Counted from the first letter of the stretch, positions 10,323 to 55,127 are shown. The stretch: DNA of 64,000 nt from Alphaproteobacteria bacterium (GCA_017630405.1 JAGBVH010000025.1:12352-76351); one strand, 5' to 3'. Notes: generated by a model from the sequence alone, not told the origin. Numbers and translations: made by a program.

Positions 10323-10383
10323 AAATCCCCCAGCAATGGGGGATTTTTTTATGTAATAAAAAATCCCATATTCGTGGGATTTT
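10323..10383. terminator. Two back-to-back intrinsic terminator hairpins between convergent groEL and NTase genes
   Basis: AAATCCCCC-agcaat-GGGGGATTTTTTT and AAAAATCCCA-tattcg-TGGGATTTT. Confidence 0.8.
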
Positions 10384-11119
10384 ACAAAAGTTGAAACTTT
10401 TTCGATCTGTCGTGTTTAATATGCCTGCGCAACTTTCGAAAGATACCTGTATTACGCACCATTTTAAATGCCATAGTCATAGAAGTAATTGGCTGGTCAC
10501 GCTGTTGCAACATACCAACAGTTCTTCTGCTTTGCATTGCCGCCAAATATGCCTCGATATAATCTGCGGGCATTTCGTGTTTCAACATATATCGACAATG
10601 TTGCATTATAATTTTGTATCGCTGTTTTGCGATACTTCTAATCTTACGCAATTCTTGCTTTGACAAGCGTTGTGGTGTAACAATCCATTTATCCTTAAAG
10701 ATTGAATAAATTGGTCCAACCTTGCACTCTTTTTCCAAATTAATAATAGAAATATCCACCTTACGCCCAAATATAGATACATCAAACGTTCTCATCCACG
10801 AACTAACAAAAGACCTGTCAAAAAGTTTACGGTTCAGTTCTGGATTTGCCAGATATGGGGACCTTGGATTAACAATAAGAGCCAAGTCAATATCACTATA
10901 CTTATCCCAGTAATAGTTTGTTATCGAACCATGGACCCAAATATCTTGAACATCTTTTTTTGTTATCGGCAAACCAACAATATCATTCATATAACGAATA
11001 AATTCCAGGGCGATTGCCTGCAAAGTATTCACCACCAAGGCATTCATGGTCAAATTATTTTCCCATACCTTTGGCGCAAGTGTCTTATGATATTTAAAAG
11101 TATTACGTCGCCCTAACAT
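10382..11119 (-). CDS. Pol-beta superfamily nucleotidyltransferase, phage-type
   Basis: hGS motif and DxD (HGSITNYYWDKYSDIDL), third Asp in KVDIS, helical C-terminus (AFKMVRNTG). Confidence 0.75.
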   Translation of the reverse strand: MLGRRNTFKYHKTLAPKVWENNLTMNALVVNTLQAIALEFIRYMNDIVGLPITKKDVQDIWVHGSITNYYWDKYSDIDLALIVNPRSPYLANPELNRKLFDRSFVSSWMRTFDVSIFGRKVDISIINLEKECKVGPIYSIFKDKWIVTPQRLSKQELRKIRSIAKQRYKIIMQHCRYMLKHEMPADYIEAYLAAMQSRRTVGMLQQRDQPITSMTMAFKMVRNTGIFRKLRRHIKHDRSKKFQLL

Positions 11120-11128
11120 GCAATGGCC

Positions 11129-11722
11129 TTATTGATATGAAGAACACAATTCTTCTGTGCCATCTTCATCACAACTAAAGAAACATTTATCATCATAACG
11201 ATATGTTCCAACATCGTCCGAAAAATACCCCGCTGGGACAAAACAATCTTCGATAGAATCCGCATCTGCACCACTATTTGCCAGTGCTTCTTCTGTCAAA
11301 GTCGCACAACTGTAGCAAACATCATCTTTTTTAAAATATCCCAAGGCGCAGGAAACGGAATTCCCATCATCACCACCGGAATCCCCCCCATCTTCCGAAG
11401 GAAAATAACAAGAAGACTCAAGCCAATATGCATAATTTACTCCTTCTATGTCATTTTCAGTGTCTTCCTTGACATAATCTTCATAACATGTAAATTTCAT
11501 CAACTGATTCGCATCATCATTACATGTACAAACAACAGTTTGGCCATTTGAAAAAGAACCACTAGCACCAGAATTATAATCTCCATAATCAAGGCATTCT
11601 ACAGAATCATCTGTGTAACTGTTAGTACAAGTAAGATACTGATTCCCCGCCGCATACAACCTTGAAACCGGCAACATTGAAACAGAAAACACCGTTATGA
11701 AATAAGAACGTCTCATTCGCAA
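11129..11722 (-). CDS. Secreted acidic cysteine-rich protein
   Basis: Probable signal peptide, about 13 Cys, CALGYFKKDDVCYSC module, D/E-rich. Confidence 0.7.
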   Translation of the reverse strand: MRMRRSYFITVFSVSMLPVSRLYAAGNQYLTCTNSYTDDSVECLDYGDYNSGASGSFSNGQTVVCTCNDDANQLMKFTCYEDYVKEDTENDIEGVNYAYWLESSCYFPSEDGGDSGGDDGNSVSCALGYFKKDDVCYSCATLTEEALANSGADADSIEDCFVPAGYFSDDVGTYRYDDKCFFSCDEDGTEELCSSYQ

Positions 11723-11957
11723 TCCTTTATTATCTCCACTAAATCACCACATTCTGCGGCAATTACCTGGGCACAAAAGTCAACACAGATACATCTGCAT
11801 TATATCCAAATAACCCTAAACTTATAATATTACTTTGGAATCCTTCCTTACCCATATTACAACATATCGCCATAACAAAGATTATTATAACCGATAACTT
11901 TAAACTATGCAACACCAAGATAAAAATTATTTTAACAAAAACAAAAACGAAAAGTTT

Positions 11958-12058: not shown

Positions 12059-12146
12059 TTTCACAGAAATTGTTTTTATTATTCCTTTATCATAATAAAA
12101 AAATGCGCAATGCGCATTTAATTATCAACGATAAAAAACAAACACA

Positions 12147-12413
12147 TTATTCAACCCAAATCATAGCATTTGTAGATTGAACAGCACCGTTTACCTTGTA
12201 CGGAATTTCACCCAATTTTGCAACACCCTTGGCATCAATGCTAGCAGAAGCAACAGCAATCTTGCGATCACTTGAAATCGTTACTGTGCTGTTTGCAGCA
12301 GTATATGTCGAAACGCGATCAACATATGTTTTGCCAGCAATTTCTGCATGTGCCGTAACCATCATCAAAACAGGCATCAAAATCGCGGTAAAAAGAATCC
12401 GTTTAGCAGACAT
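12147..12413 (-). CDS. Small secreted fibre-family protein (C-terminal IWVE)
   Basis: Signal peptide AHA|EIAGKTYVD; ends MIWVE. Confidence 0.75.
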   Translation of the reverse strand: MSAKRILFTAILMPVLMMVTAHAEIAGKTYVDRVSTYTAANSTVTISSDRKIAVASASIDAKGVAKLGEIPYKVNGAVQSTNAMIWVE

Positions 12414-12498
12414 GTTATTCTTTATCTGTTGTATTAAATGAACACTATCCGGTGGGGGATGGACATACCACCCCCACCAAGTTTTTTATATCACACAA

Positions 12499-13677
12499 TT
12501 AGCGTGCAATTACTTCCCATTCTGGTGTAACTGCATTTGTAGAAGCATTATACTTCATAACCAAAGTACAATCGCGTGTCAGTTCACCATTTGCATTTTT
12601 TTCAGCACATGTTGCTGGAACCGTTGGAATTGTACCAAATGCTTCAACTTTTGCAAAACCAGCTGCAATTGTGCCACCAGCAGTATAATTAGCTGCATCT
12701 GTCGCTGTTGTCGCTGTTGCCGCATTACCAGAGTAAGATGTAATTGCTGCCACAGTACCATCAGCACCTACAAAAACAGGCACTGTTGCACTACCAACTG
12801 CTTGCGAACCACTATACTTAACGGCTGTTACTTTATCCTGTTTCTTAGCAAACTCTGATGCGATACCACCTTCCGCAGTGTAATTTACCGCCGCTGTAGC
12901 CTTGTTTACACTCAAGCTCGAAACATCGTCAACATCAACTTTTTTATCCAAAGCATCCTTAATCACACCAGATTCTGTTGCTGTATTGATAGTTGTAGTA
13001 ACTTGGGCACCTGTCTGATAGTTTGCATCATTTTCAAAGGCGCTAACCTGTGTTGGCAAATCCTCCGTGTCAAGTTTAGTATTATCCAAATCTTGGATAG
13101 CATTATTTATACCTGGAATTGTGGTAGTATTCAATGTTCCAATTGCAGCAGCATTACCGCTTGCAGTAGTTGCAGCTGTATTGATTTTCTCAGCCAATGT
13201 AGTGTTCAAATCACCTTCAGCAACTGTACCATCCAAGATCTGAGTAGTAGTAACAGAGCCTGTACCCAATTCCAAATTACCACCTGCGACACTAGTAACA
13301 CGAGCATCCAAGTCATTAACAGCTGTTGTCAAAGCGCCCTTTTCTTTAGCATATGACCCTTCAGCAAAAGTACCGATTTGTGTATTATGTTGCTGAATAG
13401 ATTGTCCTTGAGCAGTAATCTGTCCCTGCAAATTTTCTTGAAGACCCGCAACTTCTTGGTCTGTTGCCATATCCTTGATAGCAATCCCAACCCAAGTCTG
13501 TGTTGCCATGTCGGTTGTAGCTGTTTTAATGGCTGTGTCGATGTTACCACCTGACGCCAAACCAGTTGTTACGGCACCCGCCGCCGTCTTGTCAACATAA
13601 GTTGTGGATGCGATATCCGCGTTTGCTGCCGAAACAGCCATAATTGCCAATACTGACACTGTTACGATTTTTTTCAT
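12499..13677 (-). CDS. Secreted tail-fibre-like protein
   Basis: Signal ANA|DIASTTYVD; GSVTTTQILDGTV, VSAFENDANY and GSATVPVFV modules; Thr/Ala-rich. Confidence 0.8.
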   Translation of the reverse strand: MKKIVTVSVLAIMAVSAANADIASTTYVDKTAAGAVTTGLASGGNIDTAIKTATTDMATQTWVGIAIKDMATDQEVAGLQENLQGQITAQGQSIQQHNTQIGTFAEGSYAKEKGALTTAVNDLDARVTSVAGGNLELGTGSVTTTQILDGTVAEGDLNTTLAEKINTAATTASGNAAAIGTLNTTTIPGINNAIQDLDNTKLDTEDLPTQVSAFENDANYQTGAQVTTTINTATESGVIKDALDKKVDVDDVSSLSVNKATAAVNYTAEGGIASEFAKKQDKVTAVKYSGSQAVGSATVPVFVGADGTVAAITSYSGNAATATTATDAANYTAGGTIAAGFAKVEAFGTIPTVPATCAEKNANGELTRDCTLVMKYNASTNAVTPEWEVIAR

Positions 13678-13795
13678 TTTTTTTCCTTTCTTTCTTGTCT
13701 TGTTTTTTTTTGGTTTTTTAGTTTTTTTTCCTTAAAACTCTTGTCTTGTTATGCTGTCCCCCAACCCCAAAGTCAGGGGAACGGCATATTTTTAA

Positions 13796-15190
13796 TTAGA
13801 ACTGTTCAACACCGTCAACAACGGCACGTTCGATCTGTTCCCAGTAATATGTTGCACCGGCTTCTGTTTTATCAGCGGTCAAAACATATTTACCATATGC
13901 AGCATCGGATGCTGTCAATGATGGAATATCAACCTTTGATTCCAATCCAGATTCGATTGTACCACCAGAAGCATAATCAGAAGCGGTTGTCGCTTTTGCA
14001 ACTTCTGTTACCGCAACTGGCTGGCCATCGGTACCAATATAAACTGGGGTATCAGTCGAACCAGCAGCATTCAATTTATCCTGTTTATCCGCCAATGCTT
14101 CAGTTACTGTACCCTGATATTCTGTCAATGTCGTAGTATCAACCTTGCCAGCCAATGCCTGACCAATTACACCATCTTCAGCTGTCACAGCATTTGAAAT
14201 CGCTGTTTCAACTTCTGCATCTGTCGCCATATCTTTTGTTGCTTCACCAATCGCTGTTTGAACCTGACCGGCATCCTGATAACCAGCATTTGTGATTTCA
14301 GTCTTGGTCGCGTATGTCGTTGTGATTACATTACCTGCCGCATCTTTCTCTGCCGAGCCTGCTTCATCTGCATAAGCTGCTGCATCAGCTTCGCCTGCTT
14401 TTGTCGCATAATCAGCACTTGTTGCTTTTGCCGCTTCATCCGCACTGGCCGCTGTTGTAGCACTGTCTGCAGTATCAGCATGTGTTGCCGCCGCTACTTT
14501 TTCAATCGTATGTACTACGCCATTTGCATCGATATAGAAAGCATGTGATTCATCACCGGCGCTCTTCAACTTAGCAGCCGCAATTGCATTCGCTACTTCC
14601 GCGCCAGTCATTGTTTCTTCTTTTGTATAATAATTCGCTAATGCCCCTTCCAACTCTGTGGTATCAACATACTTTTCAACTACATCAACACCCAGCTTTT
14701 CCAACGTAACAGATTTGTCACCCAATTTATCAGCAGAAATTTCACCGCCAGCAATTGTTTCAACGCGTGTATTCAACGCATCAATAGCCTTGGTCAATGT
14801 GCCCAAACCTTCCTGTGAAACATAGCCAGACATATCACCAATCTTATCATCAACTGATTTAATACTTGCCTGCAAAGCCTTCAGGTCAATTTCATTACCT
14901 TGGGCATCAACGAATTTTTCTTGTAAATCCTCAATATCGCCTTCCAAAGCGGCTTTCAATTGTTCAACATCAATTGGGTTGCCTTCTGTATCATAAACTG
15001 CACCCTTCAACAGTTCTACAACTGCATCCAACGTTTCAACGTCTTGTTGCAATGTCGCCACTGTTTGCTGATCTGCCTTGGCACCCAACTGCTGATTCAC
15101 CCAGCCTGTGGATGCAACATTTGCATCTGCCGCCCCCATGGAGACCATCCCCAAAATACCGGCAAATATACCTGCTGTCATTTTTTTCAT
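13796..15190 (-). CDS. Secreted tail-fibre-like protein
   Basis: Signal ADA|NVASTGWVN; coiled coil; ISADKLGDKSVTLEKL, A-x-x-A-D repeats, DAAGNVITTTYATK, GSTDTPVYI. Confidence 0.8.
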   Translation of the reverse strand: MKKMTAGIFAGILGMVSMGAADANVASTGWVNQQLGAKADQQTVATLQQDVETLDAVVELLKGAVYDTEGNPIDVEQLKAALEGDIEDLQEKFVDAQGNEIDLKALQASIKSVDDKIGDMSGYVSQEGLGTLTKAIDALNTRVETIAGGEISADKLGDKSVTLEKLGVDVVEKYVDTTELEGALANYYTKEETMTGAEVANAIAAAKLKSAGDESHAFYIDANGVVHTIEKVAAATHADTADSATTAASADEAAKATSADYATKAGEADAAAYADEAGSAEKDAAGNVITTTYATKTEITNAGYQDAGQVQTAIGEATKDMATDAEVETAISNAVTAEDGVIGQALAGKVDTTTLTEYQGTVTEALADKQDKLNAAGSTDTPVYIGTDGQPVAVTEVAKATTASDYASGGTIESGLESKVDIPSLTASDAAYGKYVLTADKTEAGATYYWEQIERAVVDGVEQF

Positions 15191-15254
15191 TTTACTTTCC
15201 TTTCTTTCGTTTTTGTTAATTCTTGTTTACACCCACAAGGTTTTTTGATTTGAA

Positions 15255-16388
15255 TTACTCGTCCACTGTTGGCATCTGTAATTCAATCCACTTATATTCC
15301 GTCCCGTTATAGGTCAGAACACAAATTCCACTGATTCCGTCGCACGCACCAGGATTGGAAATCTTTCCTTCTAATGCATCTTCCACTGTCTTGATGCTTT
15401 CAGTCAGCGCACCAACAGAACCAACCAAGCCTGCTGTTGCATCCGTACCCAAAACAACATCTGTCAACGCATCCATATCCTTGTTCAAAGTTTCCAGATT
15501 TTCGGATGTCATCGCATTGTCGGCCTTGGCCTTCAATTCGTTAATCGCCGCAACGATTGATTTTGCTTCGGTCTGTAACTCACCAGCAACCGCTGATTCA
15601 ACACCCGCCAAACGATCTTCCATATCGGCCAAACCTTCGGCCAAACCTGGAATCATAACATCGTTCAGCTTCTCTTCCAATTCTGACAACTTGGCGGCCA
15701 TTTCGTCCAAATCACCAGTTTCAGGAACTGTAATCAAATCAACCCATTCACCTTCAGCATCCTTGTACTGAATATAACCGGTTTCAGTGTCGTATTGCAT
15801 TTCGACATTACCCGCCAACTGACCCGACAAATCGTCCTTAATATGTTCAACCAATGTTGGAACACTAAGTTCAAACTTAAAACCATCTTTACCTGGTTCA
15901 TCATCTGCGATAACAAAACCCGCATTATCTTCATCATCGGCAGCCGCAACAAAGCTTTGATGCAAATCAACAATCTGCTTCTGCAAAACTTCAATCGCCT
16001 GATTCAAACTATCAACACTGCCTGCCAATTCACCACTTACGTTATCGCCTTTGGAAATTGTAGAGCCACCAGCCGTCACCGCACCACCAAGATATTTACC
16101 AATAGACAAACGTGGCGTTGACGCAACGCGTGTGGATGTCGTATCCGTTGCTGTCGACTTAACCGAGCCCAAATTCGCAGCAGTACTGCGAACCGCACTT
16201 GCACGGACAGTCTTGGCCCCTGTTGACGAAGTCCCATTTGCCTTGGCCGCGGTTGCACTGGACACACCAGAATATGTCCCAGCACCCCCCAGAGAGCGTA
16301 CAGCCGGTGCAGCAAATGCAGGACTAAAAGTCGCAGCACACACCCCACACAACAAGGATAATAATGATATCTTTATTTCTTTTTTCAT
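15255..16388 (-). CDS. Secreted coiled-coil fibre-family protein
   Basis: Signal ending PAFA; S/T/A-rich N-region; heptad-like segments; C-terminal CVLTYNGTEYKWIEL; start at MKKEIK. Confidence 0.8.
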   Translation of the reverse strand: MKKEIKISLLSLLCGVCAATFSPAFAAPAVRSLGGAGTYSGVSSATAAKANGTSSTGAKTVRASAVRSTAANLGSVKSTATDTTSTRVASTPRLSIGKYLGGAVTAGGSTISKGDNVSGELAGSVDSLNQAIEVLQKQIVDLHQSFVAAADDEDNAGFVIADDEPGKDGFKFELSVPTLVEHIKDDLSGQLAGNVEMQYDTETGYIQYKDAEGEWVDLITVPETGDLDEMAAKLSELEEKLNDVMIPGLAEGLADMEDRLAGVESAVAGELQTEAKSIVAAINELKAKADNAMTSENLETLNKDMDALTDVVLGTDATAGLVGSVGALTESIKTVEDALEGKISNPGACDGISGICVLTYNGTEYKWIELQMPTVDE

Positions 16389-16467
16389 GACTCCCTTCCT
16401 GACATACATTTTATCATTTTTTGCGAATCGGGTCAAGACCTTTTATCCTACAGAAATCCAGCACTTT

Positions 16468-17178
16468 TTAAAATTCGTAACGAACACCTAATGAAATAGA
16501 ATTATCCAAAATCAAACCCATTTCATTTGTGAATTCAAATACGGTTTCATCATACACAAAATCACGCACATGTTCTGTACCACCAAAGACCGCCAAGCGA
16601 TAACGCAAATCCAATGTCAGATTATAATCCAGCTTGTATGCCCAACCCAACATTACGGCACCCATTGCCGACACTGCACGTTCACTACGATCCCCCGGCA
16701 CAAAATTCAGTGCATCAAGTTCCGTCTTAGGCAACGCAATACCCGCACCCAAACCAACATATAAACCATTTGTAAAATCATAATAACCATTGGCCAAAAC
16801 ATATGGAACAGTCATCTTAAATTCAACACCTTCATCCTGATCGTCAAACTGACCAATAATACCAGCTTCTACTTCCGCACGCCAAAAATAGTTAAATGTA
16901 TGACCAACAAAGAACGAACCACCGAATACAGACTCATAAGAATATTTGTCACTACTATACTCAGGCACTATATCCCCATAATCACTAGTATATTCATTTT
17001 CCCAATTCAGGAAACTTAATTCTGCACGACCACCAATATACCAACCTGTTTTCGCCTTGTCGTTATAATCATATGTAACATTATATCCACCGTCTTTGGT
17101 ACGCGACAAATAACTTGGCGCAGCAATTGCAGGTGTTGTCAAAGCCGCTAAAACAGCCAATGATACGATTTTTTTCAT
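16468..17178 (-). CDS. Outer-membrane beta-barrel protein (Omp25/Msp4/OmpA-TM-like)
   Basis: Signal MKKIVSLAVLAALTTPAIA; WRAEVE, ANGYYDF, YVGLGAG, LDLRYR; terminal LGVRYEF beta-signal. Confidence 0.85.
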   Translation of the reverse strand: MKKIVSLAVLAALTTPAIAAPSYLSRTKDGGYNVTYDYNDKAKTGWYIGGRAELSFLNWENEYTSDYGDIVPEYSSDKYSYESVFGGSFFVGHTFNYFWRAEVEAGIIGQFDDQDEGVEFKMTVPYVLANGYYDFTNGLYVGLGAGIALPKTELDALNFVPGDRSERAVSAMGAVMLGWAYKLDYNLTLDLRYRLAVFGGTEHVRDFVYDETVFEFTNEMGLILDNSISLGVRYEF

Positions 17179-17314
17179 GATAATCTCCCTTATTTTTCTG
17201 ATGCTAAGTATATCATAAATTCCCAACCAATCCAAACACAAAAAAATTGCTGTTGACGGCGCAAACAAAAATTTGCTAAACTCAAAGACAAAGAATATCG
17301 AAAGGGAAAATATT

Positions 17315-28391: not shown

Positions 28392-31300
28392 CTAGGCAAA
28401 AGACAGCCCTGTTTTATCGTCAAGCCCACCTTCGGTTATAACAAATTTCATACCAAAGCGTTCTTGTCCCTGTTTTTGGCGCAATCTTTCACGCAATTCT
28501 TCCTCGGCCTTAATCATCTTTTCTGCCTGAACATATTTTTCATCCAAAGGTTTATAATCAACCTTAATCGGATTTGTTGCAGCACTTATTCCGCCACTTG
28601 GCATTTTAAGACCTTTGCGCCAGACAAGCAATTTATCAACAATCTCTTTGGCAACAACTGTCTTTTCAACAGTCTTGTCTATCAAACCACTTTGATATAT
28701 CGCCGCAACTATATTTTGCCAATCATCCGCAGTCAGTCGCTTGGATTCCTGAATAATATTGCCATCCTGGTCCTTGATTTCCTTCTGATATTCCATAATA
28801 TCGGACAACGCTGTCAAGCCACGCTGAACACCATCAATATACGCAGTATCGATATTTAATTTCTCGGCCACATTATCCAAATTCTTGATAACGCGCACTA
28901 AAACATCACCAATTTCCGTACCACCAGACATACCCGCCGCCAACTCATACAGCAAATGTCCCAGCATTACTTTGTCTTTTTTGTTTGGACCTTTGTTCAT
29001 TTGCGCCCCAGTATCAAAGATACCAATCACAACATCGCGGAAAGAATCATTATAAAAATTCTGCTGTCCCATATGCCGGTCGGTATCCCATCGCGCCCCC
29101 GACAACAACAAACACAATTCAAGTGTCACATACGCAACCGCAAATTCATGTTTATCCTGCTCGCTCCACGAATCGGACACAAGGCTTTTTCCAGGTGCTT
29201 CGTCCATAATTTTATACGCATTATCACCATTTTCTGCGCTGCCATATGATATCCAGGTCGCAACATCTGGGCTATATTTTGTACCATCAACTTCAACAGC
29301 AATACTTTCATATTGCTTCTTGGCCCGTTTATATTTCTGATAGTCTTGTTCGATATCCAATTCCGACATCGAAGATTCACGCGCCTGATTTACAATATTT
29401 ATAAGTGGTTTGTACTTGGAATCCGCCTTAACCAAATCATTGATTGTACCCACAATCACCTTCAGACCAGACTCTGTTAATTCGTGTGCAAACGGCCGCA
29501 TTACAGACAACACACACTCGCGCCCTTTATATACAATTCGCACCGTCACATAGAACGAACCCGCCCCCAGTATCTCGCCCACATGACTGATATTCGCCAC
29601 CACATCATTTGGCACCGATTGTGCAATCATATCAAACAACTCGGCACGTGTTGGAATATTTGCCTTGTCTCGCAGCTGCGCCAATTCTTTACGGATATCA
29701 GAATCCAATGTTGGCAAATAAGACAACAACTGACCAAACTTGATAAACGCCGAGCCCTTGGCCTGAAGAAACATACGCAACCCCTGCCCCACCTTTTGAC
29801 CACTGGTCGTTTTAACACTTTCATCGCGCTGACCCGCCGATGCCAACGCCGCCAAATCCAAGTTTCGTTCATAAAGCGGCAGATTCTTATATACTGCGCC
29901 AACAACTAACTTCGCATCTTTATAATATTCTGATTTTTTATCAAAATACATATCAAGAATCAGATTTAATTTTCGCTCGTCGCTTTGAGTGTACGAATTT
30001 AGCAACCGATTCATCATATACGCACGCACCGGTAAATCAGCACTCCAAAACGCCTCATGTATAATAGTCAACTTTTCCTTATTTAAATACACATCATAAC
30101 CAGTTTTATCATTTATATGATTTTCCAATATGATACGCGTCACATCATCCATAGATTTATCAGAAAGTTTTTTTCCAAGAAAGTCTATACACGCACCCGC
30201 ATCCTCCGGCTTTCGCGCTAAGTAACCAAACGCAGCCTCAGCCAAACGAACTGGTTTATCATATTTTTCCACCTGCTTGTCAGTAGCTTTTTCTTCTGAC
30301 ACACTTCCAAGTAGGGCCGCCACACGCCCCTGCGCTATAATTTTATTAGACAATACATTTGCCACATTCTTTTTTACCACACGCGAAAATGCCGGATCAT
30401 CTGTCCAGGGATTTTGTGTCCAGGGACTTTTAGAATTCACCATGAGCAAAAATTCATTCACACTTTCCAGATATTCATCCGACCCATTATCCAGCCCCAA
30501 CCTATTTGCCCAATGCGCAGCATAAAAATCGATCAGTTTTTCCTTCTCGTTCGCAAACTCAAATTCTTCTATTTTACTATAAGGCACAAACTTCGTATTT
30601 GGACCCTTGGTTAAAAAATTAAAGGTATACCTAACCGCCTCGTCATCATTAACTGGTCGCGACACAATTTCATCAACAATTATTCTGATAAACGCATTTT
30701 GATTAGCAGCCTTTTCTGAAAACAAATGACTGTATTTGAAAAATTCAAATAATTGCAACTTATCGTATAACGACAATGCCTTAAAATCATTTACTGTAAT
30801 ATATTGCGCCAGCATTTCGATTACAGAAGCACTTATATAACCTTGGTCAATATGTTCAAGCTTATCCAAAACCTTGGATATATCTGCACGCCTACCATGA
30901 CGCAGATAATCCACCCAAATCCATGTCAAAAGAGTCTTAAAATCAAGAGGCTTCCTTAGTGAAATTTTATCAAGCACAACTAATAAATCCTGTTCATTCG
31001 CAATATTATCCTTGCCAATTAACTGCTTCACAATATTTTTCAGGACTTGTGATTCTTCGCGATATTTAAAATTTTCACCAATCTCTTCGAACAATGACTT
31101 GGGCACTAAATCAAACACATGGTCATTACTAGAAATTTTTTTCAGGGACGATTTTCGATATTGTCTTCGTGTCCGAAGAAATTCTTCATCATGGCTATAA
31201 GCATGCCATATGTTGTACTTACACAAATCCATAAACAACCCAAAAGCATAGACTTGGGCTTCTTTATCATCCGTCTGATTATTCAAATAAGACGCAAGTT

Positions 31301-50295: not shown

Positions 50296-50565
50296 TTAAT
50301 CAATCCAAATAAAGGCATGCCCTTCTGGCAATTCACCTTGAGGCCTTTTCAACGAAATTGTATCAAAGCGTCTGTCGCTCAAATCAACCTTGCCGTCCAA
50401 TTTCTCATTAAATTCTTTCTTAACAGCTTCTAATTTTTCCGATGTATATTCAACACTTGCCACATGTGGAACCAAAACTGTTGTCACCGCATCCTGACAA
50501 ATCGCAGGCCCAATCGCCGACACCATTAAGCACAAACAAAAAAACAAGCGTCCAATAACAGACAT
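50296..50565 (-). CDS. Small secreted fibre-family protein (C-terminal IWID)
   Basis: GGAGAG RBS; signal peptide; KLDGKVD...RFDTIS...PEGHAFIWID. Confidence 0.7.
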   Translation of the reverse strand: MSVIGRLFFCLCLMVSAIGPAICQDAVTTVLVPHVASVEYTSEKLEAVKKEFNEKLDGKVDLSDRRFDTISLKRPQGELPEGHAFIWID

Positions 50566-50646
50566 TATCTCTCCGTCCAAGATTCCTTTCATCAACATAT
50601 TAATATCACACTTCAAAGCAACACGCAAATCCAACCCACAACAAAT

Positions 50647-51636
50647 TTAAAATCTATATATTTTTACATAACTGACATCGCTGACATTCTGGACACCACT
50701 GCCACCGGCACCACCATTAACACCAACACCAACGCCCAACAATCCACCGGTCGAAACCGCGCCACCACCGCCACCACCATACGAAGTTATCGTCTGACCA
50801 CCACAGGACCACGATACATTCGCACCACCGGCACCACCCGTTGCGTTTGAAGAACCGAACAATCCGCCCATGGAACTGCTGCCGCCGTCGCCACCACCAC
50901 TATCTGTGGCATCAGCACCAACATTCCCGCGATACAGCAAACCAGATGCGGCTACACCACCACCACCACCAACGGCGCCACCGCCGCCACCACCACACCC
51001 AAGACCATCAGCACCCCATGCATCACCGCCCTTGGCCGCAACACCATCTGTTCCCTGTTCAAAACTGCCGCCGCCGCCGGAACCACATTCTTGTTCAACC
51101 TTGCTACTGTTATATCCACCCTGACCCGCCCCACCGGCACCACCCTGGGACAAGACAAATTCATCACCAACCTGAAAGAAACTTGGTGCGCCCGATGCGC
51201 CACCACCACCGGCCGACATAACACCACTGCTGGCAGAATTTACACCACCCGCATTACCATCACCGCCGCGAAAAGCATAAACGGTTGTCGCCGTGTCAAT
51301 TGTAAAACTATAGATTTCTGGGGCAGCATCCTGACCATTACCTGTTCGACCACCACCATCGCCGCCACAACCGCCAAGAATCTCTACGGTATAACATCCC
51401 GGGCGCAACTCAATAGCCTCGCATGAATTCAAAGATGTTACTTCGTGATAAAGACTGGATTGCCCAACGGTGTACACAACACCATCTTTTTTAATTTTTA
51501 ATGAATCTGGACAACTACCCACCGATACAGGCGCATAATAAATGGCCCCCGTCTGATCTTTAATATTAAGGGCAAACTCAGTCGTCTTAACTGTATCAAC
51601 CGCTATTTGAAGATCAGCAACATTCAGAACTGGCAT
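50647..51636 (-). CDS. Glycine-rich beta-domain protein (tail-fibre/ALK-type Gly-rich), no signal peptide
   Basis: GCYTVEILGGCGG N-strand, many GGGGG/GGAGG turns, closing YVKIYRF strand. Confidence 0.8.
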   Translation of the reverse strand: MPVLNVADLQIAVDTVKTTEFALNIKDQTGAIYYAPVSVGSCPDSLKIKKDGVVYTVGQSSLYHEVTSLNSCEAIELRPGCYTVEILGGCGGDGGGRTGNGQDAAPEIYSFTIDTATTVYAFRGGDGNAGGVNSASSGVMSAGGGGASGAPSFFQVGDEFVLSQGGAGGAGQGGYNSSKVEQECGSGGGGSFEQGTDGVAAKGGDAWGADGLGCGGGGGGAVGGGGGVAASGLLYRGNVGADATDSGGGDGGSSSMGGLFGSSNATGGAGGANVSWSCGGQTITSYGGGGGGAVSTGGLLGVGVGVNGGAGGSGVQNVSDVSYVKIYRF

Positions 51637-51653
51637 TATCCACATCCTTAATA

Positions 51654-52130
51654 TCAATTAAACCAAATAAAAACCTGACCTTCAGGCGGGGTTCCGCTTG
51701 GTTCAGTTGTTGGCACCGTACTAAATCGAACATCATCAGCATCTGCCTTAGTATCCAATTTAGTATCTAGTTGTGTCTTGGTATAAATATCCGGCTTGTT
51801 CGCAATATAATCAGATGCAAATGGATCTGTCTGCTCCCAGTCCGGTGTCGTTACATTACCTCCAGACGAACCAAGAAAACTTTCAACATAGGATTTGTCA
51901 GCCTTGTTATCTAATTTATCATCAATTTCTGTCTTGGTATAAATATCTGGCTTGTTTGCGATATAATCGGACGCTGTTGAATCAGTTTGAGCCCAATTTG
52001 CCTGCTTTTGATTTATACTCGCAACAATGGCATCAACATAACTTTTACTGGCAATATTTGCGTGCGCAAAAGGCACGCACAAAACGGCGTTACAAATTAA
52101 CACCAGTAAAAATATTCGACGTGCTTTCAC
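51654..52130 (-). CDS. Secreted fibre-family protein with a duplicated tail-fibre repeat (C-terminal IWFN)
   Basis: AHA|NIASKSYVD; two copies of W-x-QTD-x-x-ASDYIANKPDIYTKT; ends PEGQVFIWFN. Confidence 0.8.
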   Translation of the reverse strand: MKARRIFLLVLICNAVLCVPFAHANIASKSYVDAIVASINQKQANWAQTDSTASDYIANKPDIYTKTEIDDKLDNKADKSYVESFLGSSGGNVTTPDWEQTDPFASDYIANKPDIYTKTQLDTKLDTKADADDVRFSTVPTTEPSGTPPEGQVFIWFN

Positions 52131-52512: not shown

Positions 52513-54141
52513 TTAGTTGAGAGGTGCACCCCAATGCTGTTGAATAGTGCGTTCCGAATCCATCGGACTAATCAGAACCTGCGGAGTCAGGATAACAACC
52601 AAAACTTCGCGTGCCGCCTTGGTTTCACGAGAACCAGACAAAGCCATAAAGTCAGGATCGCCAAGACCATAACGAGTATCTTGATTTGTCTGTTTTTCAA
52701 ATCCAGATACAACTAACATTTGGCCTGATTCCATAATTACTTCCTGCATAAAACTACGTTCTTCAACTTCTGGCAACTGCAGCGTCACTTCACCAATTGT
52801 CTGGGTTGACATACGCAACAATTCACGCACAGACATACGGAACAACAACAGGATTTTGCCGTTTTCCAAAACATTTGGCAACAACTGCATTGTGAAACCT
52901 GTTTCCAAATCGTCCTGATCAACGGTACTTGATTCAACCGTTGTAAAATTACGCGATTCAAAACGTTTGATATAGCCGGTTGTACGAGTGTTGCTGACTG
53001 GCGCGACACGATTACTGCGAGTGGTCACACCCACATTTGTCACCAAGGACACCTTGCCCTGCTTAGCCAAAGCCTCGATAAGCGCGCTGCTGCCAGCCGC
53101 ACCTGACAAAGAACCATTCATAATCTGGTCATTGGTATATGCACCTTCAACCAAAGAACCATTTTCCATATGTGTCGCACCTGTCAAAGCCGAAACCGTA
53201 TTTGACAGAACCGCGATATTCATAGAACTTGCCTCGGTCGAAGCCAAATTATTCTTTGGATTGGCAACAATATTCAGTCCAGATGTGGAATTAATCGCCG
53301 CCGCCAAATTCAAACCAAACGCAGAATCATTAGAAATCGTAACCTGTAATACCTTTACATCAATTGTCACCAACTGGGACAGACGCTTGTTTTGACGATC
53401 AATGTATTCACTGATACGCGACAGAACCGATGGTGATGCGGTCACAGTAATCGTACCCAAACTGCGTGACACCGTGAAATTAGCATTTGAATTTTTACCT
53501 ATAATAGAAGAGATAGCACCTTCAACTTCGTCCCACTCTTTCAAAGTGGATTCCAAAGACACCTGATTACCATCATCCGTTGAAACCGCGGTTTGATATG
53601 CGACCTCGGTCCCCAGGGCATACAATGCAAATGTTCTTGTTTCTGTTTCATAGAACACAATCGAGTTTTTATCATAATACCACAGCAAATCTAAATCTGT
53701 CGCAACCTGAGATAACAAACCAGACAGTTTACCAGTATAGGCAACATTAATTGCCTTTCTTAACTTTTCATCAGAAACCTGACCATCAATTTTTACAGGA
53801 ATACCAGTAATTGAATAAACATCATTTGCAAACACCTGTAATGAGACAGGTTCATTTAATAATAATGTAACACCTGTATCTGTTTCAAACTGTGCTGGCA
53901 AATTATTACGATGTTCCAACACAATTGATTTATTACCCAACCAAACACCCTCGGACATAGAAACAGTGTCACTGCTGGCAACCTTGGCGCGTGGATTCTT
54001 GGCCATTTCAAACGCATCATAGGCATTGATAAAATCCTGATCCACAGATGCCGCAACCTTGGCTGATTCTTGCTTGGCACAACCAACCAGCGCGACACAA
54101 GCCAAAGTACAAACAAACAAGTTTCTGATTGTTTTTTTCAT
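52513..54141 (-). CDS. Type IVb pilus secretin, PilN/BfpB-like lipoprotein
   Basis: Lipobox LVGC; N-domain DLLWYYD...ETRTF; ITVTASPSVL; QLVTIDVKVL; ESGQMLVVSGFE; VVILTP. Confidence 0.85.
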   Translation of the reverse strand: MKKTIRNLFVCTLACVALVGCAKQESAKVAASVDQDFINAYDAFEMAKNPRAKVASSDTVSMSEGVWLGNKSIVLEHRNNLPAQFETDTGVTLLLNEPVSLQVFANDVYSITGIPVKIDGQVSDEKLRKAINVAYTGKLSGLLSQVATDLDLLWYYDKNSIVFYETETRTFALYALGTEVAYQTAVSTDDGNQVSLESTLKEWDEVEGAISSIIGKNSNANFTVSRSLGTITVTASPSVLSRISEYIDRQNKRLSQLVTIDVKVLQVTISNDSAFGLNLAAAINSTSGLNIVANPKNNLASTEASSMNIAVLSNTVSALTGATHMENGSLVEGAYTNDQIMNGSLSGAAGSSALIEALAKQGKVSLVTNVGVTTRSNRVAPVSNTRTTGYIKRFESRNFTTVESSTVDQDDLETGFTMQLLPNVLENGKILLLFRMSVRELLRMSTQTIGEVTLQLPEVEERSFMQEVIMESGQMLVVSGFEKQTNQDTRYGLGDPDFMALSGSRETKAAREVLVVILTPQVLISPMDSERTIQQHWGAPLN

Positions 54142-54167: not shown

Positions 54168-55067
54168 TTATTCTTCGTTTGTAGAAATTACCAACACTCT
54201 ATTACCTTTATAGAACTTTGCATATGGGATTGGTGTCGCACGCCCAAAGTTACGAACCAACGCAGAAGCCACATCAACAAAGCGTCCTTTAAACACAGCA
54301 CTGGCTTCGACTGGATATTCACGTGATGTTGCCCATACCAAATCCCAGCCTTCTTTATTGCACCAGTTCTGTAAAACTTCACGCAAGGTCTGACCATTTG
54401 CCACAACCCAAGAACGAACCTGATCAGTCAGAACAGCTGGCGCTTCCGCATCAGCTGAAACATCAACCGCGATTTCTGTTTCTTCTACCTCGACCGCTTC
54501 AGGTTTTTCTGTCTTCATACCCATTCTGACTGCAAACGCTTCATAACCATCGGCATATTTGCCACAATTTTTACGACCGCTGCGCGATACAGCCAGAACA
54601 TTACCACCATCATCTTCTAAAACCTCGCGATGCAACAAAGGCATTTCGGACTCATTTGCGCATTCATCATCGAACCCAACAGGAATCTGAGTACCATGCA
54701 ACATATTCGCGCCACCAGACCAACCACCAAAATCACCACGCGCCCCCAGATTGATATTATTTTCAACCACCAAATCCGCACCTATTTTGGAAACGATGCG
54801 AATATTATCGGACTTGTCACAGTCTGTGCATTCCACTTCCCTACATTCAACCTCGGCCGCGGCATCCGAACCTGCAATTGGCCACGCTGGCACCTCTGGC
54901 ATTTGGGCGACTTCGTCCTCTACCTGATAAACATCCACATCATCGCGGACAAATTTTTCCTGTTCATAGAACACTTCTGATGTGACAACCTGTGGCAAAG
55001 TTTCAGCCGCAAAGCAATAGCCAGCAGCCGTTGCGAACATCGCTACAATCAAAATCTTGCGAAACAT
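54168..55067 (-). CDS. TcpQ/PilL-like type IVb pilus protein
   Basis: Signal peptide; C-terminal WVVANGQTLREVLQNWC...W.LVW...YP...FYKGNRVLVI TcpQ-type domain; start at MFRKIL. Confidence 0.75.
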   Translation of the reverse strand: MFRKILIVAMFATAAGYCFAAETLPQVVTSEVFYEQEKFVRDDVDVYQVEDEVAQMPEVPAWPIAGSDAAAEVECREVECTDCDKSDNIRIVSKIGADLVVENNINLGARGDFGGWSGGANMLHGTQIPVGFDDECANESEMPLLHREVLEDDGGNVLAVSRSGRKNCGKYADGYEAFAVRMGMKTEKPEAVEVEETEIAVDVSADAEAPAVLTDQVRSWVVANGQTLREVLQNWCNKEGWDLVWATSREYPVEASAVFKGRFVDVASALVRNFGRATPIPYAKFYKGNRVLVISTNEE

Positions 55068-55098
55068 ATCGGGTCTTCCTTTCCTATTTATAGTATTT

Positions 55099-55127
55099 AT
55101 TATAACAATTTGACCGAATCTGTGCAA
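55099..55127 (-). promoter_or_regulatory. Sigma70-type promoter for the pilL/pilN-like operon
   Basis: Minus strand TTGCAC-17-TATAAT. Confidence 0.7.

Follow-up and report, generated by a model that had tools for sequence, protein, structure and literature searches.

What function is served by four adjacent bacterial genes whose products have leaders for export and repeats that resemble those of phage tail fibers? The genes are located at positions 12147–16388 of a 64,000-nucleotide stretch of DNA from an Alphaproteobacteria bacterium (GCA_017630405.1, JAGBVH010000025.1:12352-76351); this whole stretch is designated the window, and all positions are counted from its first letter. A first-pass annotation described a cluster of four Sec-exported proteins that are assembled from phage tail-fiber modules, lack known anchors, and are analogous to the MAT adhesins of Bdellovibrio. 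The reading that we favor from a computational analysis, with moderate confidence, is that the four genes make up the variable portion of a conserved chromosomal operon for an undescribed, diversifying envelope fiber system.

The DNA comes from Candidatus Enterousia, a group of gut Alphaproteobacteria in the order Rs-D84. These bacteria have genomes of <1 Mb, are devoid of respiration and of most biosynthetic capacity, and are predicted to be obligate symbionts or parasites (PMC12306168). The presence of dnaA, dnaN, and gyrB places the window on the chromosome, close to the replication origin.

Four proteins with Sec-type leaders and recurrent terminal motifs

The four open reading frames (ORFs; called and translated by program) are co-directional on the minus strand and are spaced 64–118 bp apart. 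From upstream to downstream, they encode P0004 (15255–16388; 377 amino acids (aa)), P0003 (13796–15190; 464 aa), P0002 (12499–13677; 392 aa), and P0001 (12147–12413; 88 aa). The ORF for P0004 is open as far as a TTG at 16436; we set its start at 16388 because the sequence found there, MKKEIK, begins every homologue.

The signal peptides that had been described for all four proteins are evident in their translations: each has a K/R-rich start, 12–17 hydrophobic residues, and an AxA-type site (Sec-type leaders, assessed by eye together with the N-terminal helix in AlphaFold2 (AF2) models). Three of the mature proteins begin with a shared motif, also as described, that is, DIASTTYVD in P0002 (after ANA), NVASTGWVN in P0003 (after ADA), and EIAGKTYVD in P0001 (after AHA); P0004 does not have this motif and comes from another family, which is much larger. 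P0002 and P0003 are paralogues (E-values of 7e-9 for the C-terminal 174 aa and 4e-5 for the N-terminal 150 aa) that have common blocks in different orders. All of the motifs quoted in the first-pass annotation were located, including KDMATDQEV/KDMATDAEV, which is near residue 70 in one of the two proteins and near residue 318 in the other; GVIKDALDKKVD/GVIGQALAGKVD; KQDK...PVFVGADG/KQDK...PVYIGTDG; and ANYTAGGTI/SDYASGGTI. The tail-fiber-like repeats SVTTTQI/SVTLEKL, SAFENDANY, and DAAGNVITTTYATK were found as well, as were the C-terminal motifs CTLVMKY..PEWEVIAR (P0002), YVLTAD..YYWEQIER (P0003), CVLTYNGTEYKWIELQ, and, on the small protein (P0001), the end ...GVAKLGEIP...AMIWVE. The N- and C-terminal motifs recur in >100 related proteins. 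BLAST detects no similarity of P0004 to P0002 or P0003; when the C-terminal Cys-loop/Trp hairpins of P0004 and the P0002 family are compared as profiles, the match is marginal (E 3e-4, probability 38%).

Searches of Pfam, PHROGs, and NCBIfam with P0001–P0004 gave nothing above the cut-off; the sub-threshold Pfam matches are to coiled-coil families only, and Pfam retrieves neither Peptidase_S74 or another domain nor an N_methyl leader or a fimbrial (Ig-like pilin) match for the four proteins. A phmmer search of the PDB with P0002, P0003, and P0004 gave no match. When ten relatives and ten long members of the P0004 family were submitted to Pfam, only stray sub-threshold or marginal matches were obtained, with PTR in the phage protein P0034 only and Phage_XkdX above the cut-off in one member; no toxin or enzyme domain was found in any family member scanned. 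The reported absence of a known anchor also held: Pfam and NCBIfam identify no YadA anchor, type IX secretion system C-terminal domain, SLH, or PEP-CTERM in the four proteins, inspection for the lipobox [LVI][ASTVI][GAS]C found none, and LPXTG was likewise among the sorting signals not encountered. We found no paper on these proteins and no match to a known family.

The operon and its conservation

The cluster of four genes is real, but the unit is larger: a gene for an outer-membrane beta-barrel (16468–17181, minus strand; 237 aa, ending in RYEF; Pfam OMP_b-brl, E 2e-8) belongs to it as its first gene. The barrel has the size of an 8–10-strand outer-membrane barrel and gives a weak NCBIfam match to the Rickettsia adhesin Adr (E 8e-4). 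Consensus scans place a putative promoter-like site (TTGACC-17-TAAAAT with TG; 16408–16436, minus strand) just upstream of the P0004 gene and a terminator-like hairpin with a T-run (12101–12119, minus strand) after the P0001 gene; this hairpin is the probable end of the operon.

P0004 has 123 homologues, mostly from metagenome-assembled genomes (MAGs) of Alphaproteobacteria, and the homologues of P0002, P0003, and P0004 derive from gut metagenomes and MAGs. A scan for the P0004 family with one genome per GTDB species gave 100 relatives; the loci analyzed are the 80 that were kept, 71 of which have enough flanking sequence. The titles of the 80 loci are overwhelmingly Candidatus Enterousia or uncultured Alphaproteobacteria/Rickettsiales, from human, ruminant, pig, horse, and chicken gut. 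In 69 of the 71 species loci, the barrel gene is directly upstream of the P0004-type (P4-type) gene, which is always the first fiber gene of the operon. The order is fixed: the barrel gene is followed by one P4-type gene, by one to at least six genes of class A (up to five in a scripted count; six in locus L005), and often by a gene of class B, which was recognized by its end (IWVE, IWIE, or MWVE) in ~23 species loci and is always the last family gene there.

The classes differ only at their ends. P4-type proteins have a special N-domain and the C-terminal hairpin. Those of class A have [IVL]-[AT]-S-x-x-Y-V-D, which is at the mature N-terminus or a few residues from it, together with the hairpin, for which the consensus is P.P..C....C-V-L-[ST]-x(4-9)-W-x-[EL]-[IVL] (some members have G-[KT]-Y for the Cys loop). 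Those of class B have the N-motif and the end "G..IP.G.......A.IWVE". In the window, P0004 is P4-type and would be the base fiber, with a cationic N-domain predicted to be disordered, a small predicted alpha/beta domain, long predicted helices, and the C-terminal hairpin; P0003 is a class A fiber with a predicted coiled-coil half, a repeat of phage-fiber type, and the hairpin YVLT..YYWEQIER; P0002, also class A, has long predicted helices; and P0001 is a class B protein, putatively a terminal subunit.

In every relative examined, the fiber genes are located at the same site, beside pal, ftsEX, and tolB; at least 70 species have them in this position, with pal/ftsEX on one side and housekeeping genes on the other, and no relative has a disrupted ORF. 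The operon is kept across Candidatus Enterousia/Rs-D84, in essentially every species, and is made of undescribed, lineage-specific families.

The N-domain of P0004

The conserved N-domain of P0004 (residues 27–105; 16074–16310, minus strand) contains the motifs VRSLGGAGTY, R.G..R, and TPRLSIGKYL, which are invariant across 61 species. Its profile retrieves 302 clusters from 1.84 billion representative proteins; in all 150 matches listed, the domain starts at residue 1–22, and the lengths of the proteins are 119–1095 aa. The N-domain has no relative in Pfam, and its profile has no match in the PDB.

The composition is unusual in charge, with a mean of 8.5 K/R vs 0.6 D/E and 66% S/T/G/A; the rest of P0004 has 16 K/R vs 56 D/E, and the mature barrel has 16 vs 33. 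In the AF2 model, the pLDDT (predicted local distance difference test) of the N-domain is <50, that is, it is predicted to be disordered, and residues 22–122 of P0004 are disordered and of low complexity. This cationic N-domain is the best candidate for an envelope-binding element, for which lipopolysaccharide (LPS), peptidoglycan, or the acidic barrel may be the partner.

Two features of P4-type proteins were also recorded. The hydrophobic core of the leader contains Cys14 and Cys17 (16338–16349), which are ≥90% conserved across the family; a lipoprotein was considered and rejected, as the preceding residues do not fit a lipobox, and the leader may serve for more than targeting, or it may not be removed. 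The stalk contains a small alpha/beta domain (residues 159–220; 15729–15914; pLDDT 84–91; …FELSVPTLVEHIKDDL…GYIQYKDAEGEWVDL…) for which no structural match was found in the PDB.

Variation between strains and species

The window was compared with MAG contig L001, that is, with a near-identical strain. GroEL, Pal, FtsE, FtsX, DUF218, and the acyltransferase are 98.9–100% identical; the identities are 93% for P0001, 89% for P0002, 82% for P0003, and 78% for the barrel. The barrel is the most divergent protein of the region, and its differences are clustered in a few acidic blocks, presumably loops. A 9.85-kb contig from another related strain is colinear with the window and has replaced blocks inside P0002, P0003, and the barrel. 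A peak of read depth at 13614–14014, seen in three unrelated gut metagenomes, coincides with the P0003 hairpin, the spacer, and the P0002 leader, that is, with the conserved ends.

In orthologues of P0002 with an overall identity of only 44–47%, residues 1–30 and the last ~25 residues are invariant, and the middle is rearranged. The leaders are 60–75% identical even across species. The description of a mosaic family holds, with conserved ends, shuffled middles, and replacement of blocks between strains. The combination of these features with hotspots confined to the fibers and the barrel is as expected for exposed structures under diversifying selection with recombination, and the divergence of the fibers and the barrel, which far outpaces that of the remaining genome, fits exposure on the cell surface.

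As a separate observation on these strains, two accessory genes are located between P0001 and groEL (10382–11722, minus strand). The first encodes a pol-beta-type nucleotidyltransferase (Pfam NTP_transf_2, 4e-6; phrog_36119, 4e-18), and the second encodes P0253, a Cys-rich secreted protein of 197 aa. Both are missing in L001, and in run X6 a contig passes directly from 10350 to 11940; they are thus a strain-specific insertion.

Relationship to phage tail fibers

The proposal that the proteins are assembled from phage tail-fiber modules is sustained for at least some modules, and the link is limited. The P0003 repeat 'ATQDA-GNVIT-TYATK' ("A.KD/ATQDAAGNVITTTYATKTE") is 56–65% identical over 20–50 aa to repeats of P0047, a 744-aa protein named tail repeat-like protein from a Caudoviricetes MAG; the P0047 gene, on a 118-kb phage contig, is followed by a Phage_tail_APC chaperone gene, and a Phage_tail_fib gene is ~8 kb away. 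A further family member in the window, P0250 (vide infra), has a 582-aa relative (L110) with the same leader and N-motif and the end WVWFD; this relative matches the tail fibers of Ralstonia phage phiRSL1 and Pseudomonas phage PA5oct (E 2e-36). The top three PDB matches of the N-motif profile, all weak (E 0.03–0.4), are trimeric phage tailspikes/depolymerases and the prophage hyaluronidase HylP; the matching site in these chains is the "ATKGYVD + helix" neck.

P0003 has no match in IMG/VR, and tblastn searches of 50,697 phage records with P0002, P0003, and P0125, the last a long relative of class B, were also negative. The curated tail-fiber families (Pfam PTR PF12789, Phage_fiber, and collar; PHROGs) did not match the four proteins or ten relatives. 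PF12789 was rejected as evidence for phage ancestry; the PTR match in P0034 is located at 315–349, outside the repeat common to P0003. The relationship to phage tail fibers is real but limited.

Predicted fold

AF2 monomer models were obtained for P0004 (alignment of 66 sequences) and P0002 (26 sequences). The P0004 model (mean pLDDT 61) has a leader helix, the disordered N-domain, the alpha/beta domain at 159–220, helices at 227–339, and a hairpin at 355–370; this last element is the C-terminal Cys-loop and Trp beta-hairpin (ACDGISGICVLTYNGTEYKWIEL; 15276–15347, minus strand), with predicted strands at 355–360 and 365–370. The P0002 model (mean pLDDT 58) is helical from residue 25 to ~246, with stretches of 59 and 47 residues, followed by a low-confidence stretch (247–330) and a hairpin at 369–390 with a pLDDT of ~85. 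Helices of 40–59 residues are thus predicted across the two models, and such long solitary helices imply an oligomeric coiled coil.

The profile of the IWVE tail has no match in the PDB. On the basis of the models and of analogy, the C-terminal L..W.E.I hairpin is more likely to be a nucleus for folding or oligomerization than an anchor.

A second fiber locus and a secretin

At least two further proteins in the window have termini of the family type, P0250 and P0252 (both within 50296–52130). P0250 (51654–52130, minus strand; 158 aa) has the family leader, the N-motif NIASKSYVD, two DW.QTD..DYIANKP repeats, and the end ...PPEGQVFIWFN. The adjacent genes (50296–51657, minus strand) encode P0251, a Gly-rich protein of 336 aa with no obvious leader, and P0252, a small secreted protein that ends in AFIWID; the C-terminal 42 aa are common to P0252 and P0250 (E 1e-8), and neither P0251 nor P0252 belongs to a Pfam family.

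This second locus is directly downstream of the gene for a PilN-type (type IVB) secretin (52513–54141, minus strand; Pfam Secretin 2e-13, NCBIfam PilN 4e-72), next to which a TcpQ/PilL-like protein is encoded (54168–55127, minus strand; Pfam TcpQ 1e-17). We surveyed the best 80 of 165 related metagenome contigs. The secretin is 75–92% identical across the 80 loci, and a variable island between the secretin and plsY encodes secreted proteins, among them fibers, Cys-rich proteins, and helical proteins. The secretin is an orphan: ten large ORFs at 33–48 kb were scanned and yielded no further pilus genes. It is a possible outer-membrane route for the fibers; however, a P0250-type fiber follows it in only ~7 of 47 usable loci, so the link is weak, and a role in DNA uptake is equally possible (dprA is nearby).

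Proposed function and alternatives

In the system that we favor, each protein would be exported by Sec, and its leader would be removed. In the periplasm, the chains would form elongated oligomeric, probably trimeric, fibers that consist of segmented alpha-helical coiled coils and short repeats of phage-fiber type; monomer models and analogy suggest that folding is nucleated by the C-terminal Cys-loop/Trp hairpin, as it is by the foldon in T4 fibritin. The cationic tail of P0004 may hold the system to the envelope by binding anionic LPS, peptidoglycan, or the acidic barrel encoded upstream. P0003 and P0002 would be exchangeable fibers that keep the leader, N-motif, and hairpin as their middles are reshuffled by recombination, and P0001, short and IWVE-ended, would be the subunit whose gene is the last of the locus in many relatives. 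From their variability and the lifestyle of the lineage, the exchangeable fibers may be displayed to bind the surface of a host or a partner cell, to form a coat in response to pressure from phages or immunity, or both.

Several observations weigh against this proposal. No route for passage of the fibers through the outer membrane was identified, and the barrel is not large enough to let folded fibers through. Surface exposure of the fibers and barrel is suggested solely by their variability, and hypervariability does not extend to all components, as P0004 is 99.5% identical between the window and L001. The evidence for a phage link comes from short repeats and from relatives in the family; P0002 and P0003 themselves have no direct similarity to deposited phage genomes. 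Both AF2 models are of monomers and have low overall confidence (pLDDT 58–61), and the trimer state of the fibers is putative. Foldseek searches of the PDB and BFVD with the two models gave no match at E ≤0.001, which is expected because these are low-confidence monomers of fibers; the hairpin profile retrieved neither fibritin nor any other meaningful chain from the PDB, so "foldon-like" is an analogy only. Finally, the search turned up no RNA-seq run with the locus and no RNA or protein data.

A more specific reading, to which we give a low probability, is that the proteins form a novel, modular appendage of Rs-D84, an attachment organ with a P4 base fixed to the outer membrane, one to five exchangeable fibers, and an IWVE-ended terminal subunit, assembled hierarchically. 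The base would be held by its cationic disordered tail and the co-encoded barrel, the middle fibers would contribute ASxxYVD and the hairpin, and the terminal subunit would have the N-motif and no hairpin; the complementary ends and the order base/middle/cap would then reflect end-to-end or hierarchical assembly, by analogy with the long tail fiber of T4. Export would use Sec and a nonclassical outer-membrane step, possibly the orphan PilN-type secretin. If this reading is true, the appendage is the organ by which bacteria with genomes of <1 Mb attach to the cells on which they depend.

The location of the locus beside pal, ftsEX, and tolB would fit a different role, in which the proteins are periplasmic struts with coiled coils that tie or space the outer membrane and peptidoglycan (Lpp- or TolA-like) and the P0004 tail binds peptidoglycan. 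The cationic charge of that tail, the presence of Sec leaders in the absence of a signal for outer-membrane translocation, and the two nearly invariant leader Cys of P0004, which suggest that the N-terminal helix might be retained, are also in its favor. However, a spacer of fixed width should not span 119–1095 aa, and neither one to at least six genes per locus nor an 11–18% difference between strains with 99–100% identical housekeeping proteins is expected for struts; because of this range of lengths, gene numbers, and close-strain divergence, the role is unlikely, and repeats of phage receptor-binding type have no obvious function in the periplasm.

We think it quite unlikely that the fibers are released into the medium or on vesicles as lectin-like binders, phage decoys, or bacteriocin-like targeting modules with no fixed appendage. 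In favor of release, P0003, P0002, and P0001 have no anchor, and the window contains both a conserved PilN-type secretin and an adjacent variable island of secreted proteins that includes family members; but the strict linkage to a barrel gene and to a fiber with a conserved, envelope-type N-domain suggests assembly on the cell, and the family members scanned are devoid of toxin and enzyme domains.

That the genes are the tail fibers of a degraded prophage, tailocin, or gene-transfer agent with no cellular role is very improbable: some repeats are shared with phage tail fibers and mosaic evolution is typical of these, but no other phage gene is adjacent, the chromosomal site is the same in at least 70 species, no match was found in IMG/VR or deposited phages, the ORFs are intact in all relatives, and Sec leaders, present on four of four proteins, are needless for virion fibers assembled in the cytoplasm. 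The leaders and the genomic context led us to reject a prophage origin.

Other features of the window

Two further ORFs were recorded on the minus strand. One (28392–33092) encodes a protein of 1566 aa that combines an HExxH motif (AHECGH), close to its N-terminus, with a long helical body. The other (37493–37957) is small, is isolated between rluA-like and uvrC genes, and gives a weak, sub-threshold Pfam match (N_methyl, E 0.005) to the N-methylation motif of type IV pilins.

Comparison with known systems

The MAT proteins of Bdellovibrio bacteriovorus share a beta-rich N-domain of ~130 aa; their shafts are of the beta-helix/prism type, and the C-terminal tip varies and is often accompanied by an S74 chaperone-protease (PMC10769870). 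The proteins in the window resemble them as bacterial, Sec-exported proteins with phage tail-fiber ancestry, many mosaic paralogues, unexplained anchoring and export, and a proposed role in cell recognition. However, they are not members of the MAT family: the ~130-aa N-domain and the S74/variable tip are missing, and the models are mainly alpha-helical (the comparison with the MAT N-domain was one of its published description with the predicted structures). In the P0002 model, a helix begins at residue 25, right after the cleavage site, in contrast to the beta-rich MAT N-domain. A 9-residue N-motif (in P0004, the cationic disordered tail) replaces that domain; the middle varies, and the C-terminus is the most conserved part, whereas in MAT the tip is variable; and the genes are in one conserved operon with a barrel gene.

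T4 fibritin (wac) is also a segmented coiled coil that ends in a beta-hairpin of ~25–30 residues with a central Gly/Asp turn and a Trp, as predicted for the fibers here, and its own hairpin nucleates folding of the trimer. Unlike fibritin, to which no sequence relation is detectable, the fibers usually have a Cys pair (disulfide-type) before the hairpin, have Sec leaders, and are encoded on the chromosome. The necks of phage tailspikes and tail fibers, 'ATKxYVD' (PDB 9m4d, 9m4c, and 2wh7, HylP), are the best matches of the family's N-motif, [IVL]-A-[ST]-K-x-Y-V-D followed by a helix; in addition to the weakness of these matches, the motif here is at the mature N-terminus, or a few residues from it, instead of after a particle-binding domain.

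The trimeric autotransporter adhesins (YadA, UspA1, and BtaF) are coiled-coil surface fibers of Alphaproteobacteria and other Gram-negative bacteria with repetitive, recombining stalks. By their sequences, the fibers in the window are not autotransporters: they have no YadA anchor (PF03895 or related, at E up to 1; none in NCBIfam) and no Pfam domains for head, neck, or stalk, and the barrel is encoded by a separate OMP_b-brl-type gene. The Vsp/Vlp proteins of Mycoplasma are variable surface lipoproteins of wall-less bacteria, with conserved leaders and phase-variable promoters. The conserved leader and ends and the hypervariable mature regions in our family are similar and are consistent with surface variation driven by recombination, but no lipobox or switch was seen.

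Significance

Candidatus Enterousia and Rs-D84 occur widely in the guts of humans and livestock and are believed to live at the expense of other cells; to our knowledge, nothing is known of how they contact a partner. The operon is the obvious candidate for the contact apparatus or the main surface antigen of the lineage, and it gives targets for antibodies, fluorescent probes, metaproteomics, and strain typing. It would also extend an idea so far shown in Bdellovibrio, that phage receptor-binding modules have been recruited for recognition between bacterial cells, to an architecture that differs from the Bdellovibrio case, that is, a predicted coiled coil with a hairpin.

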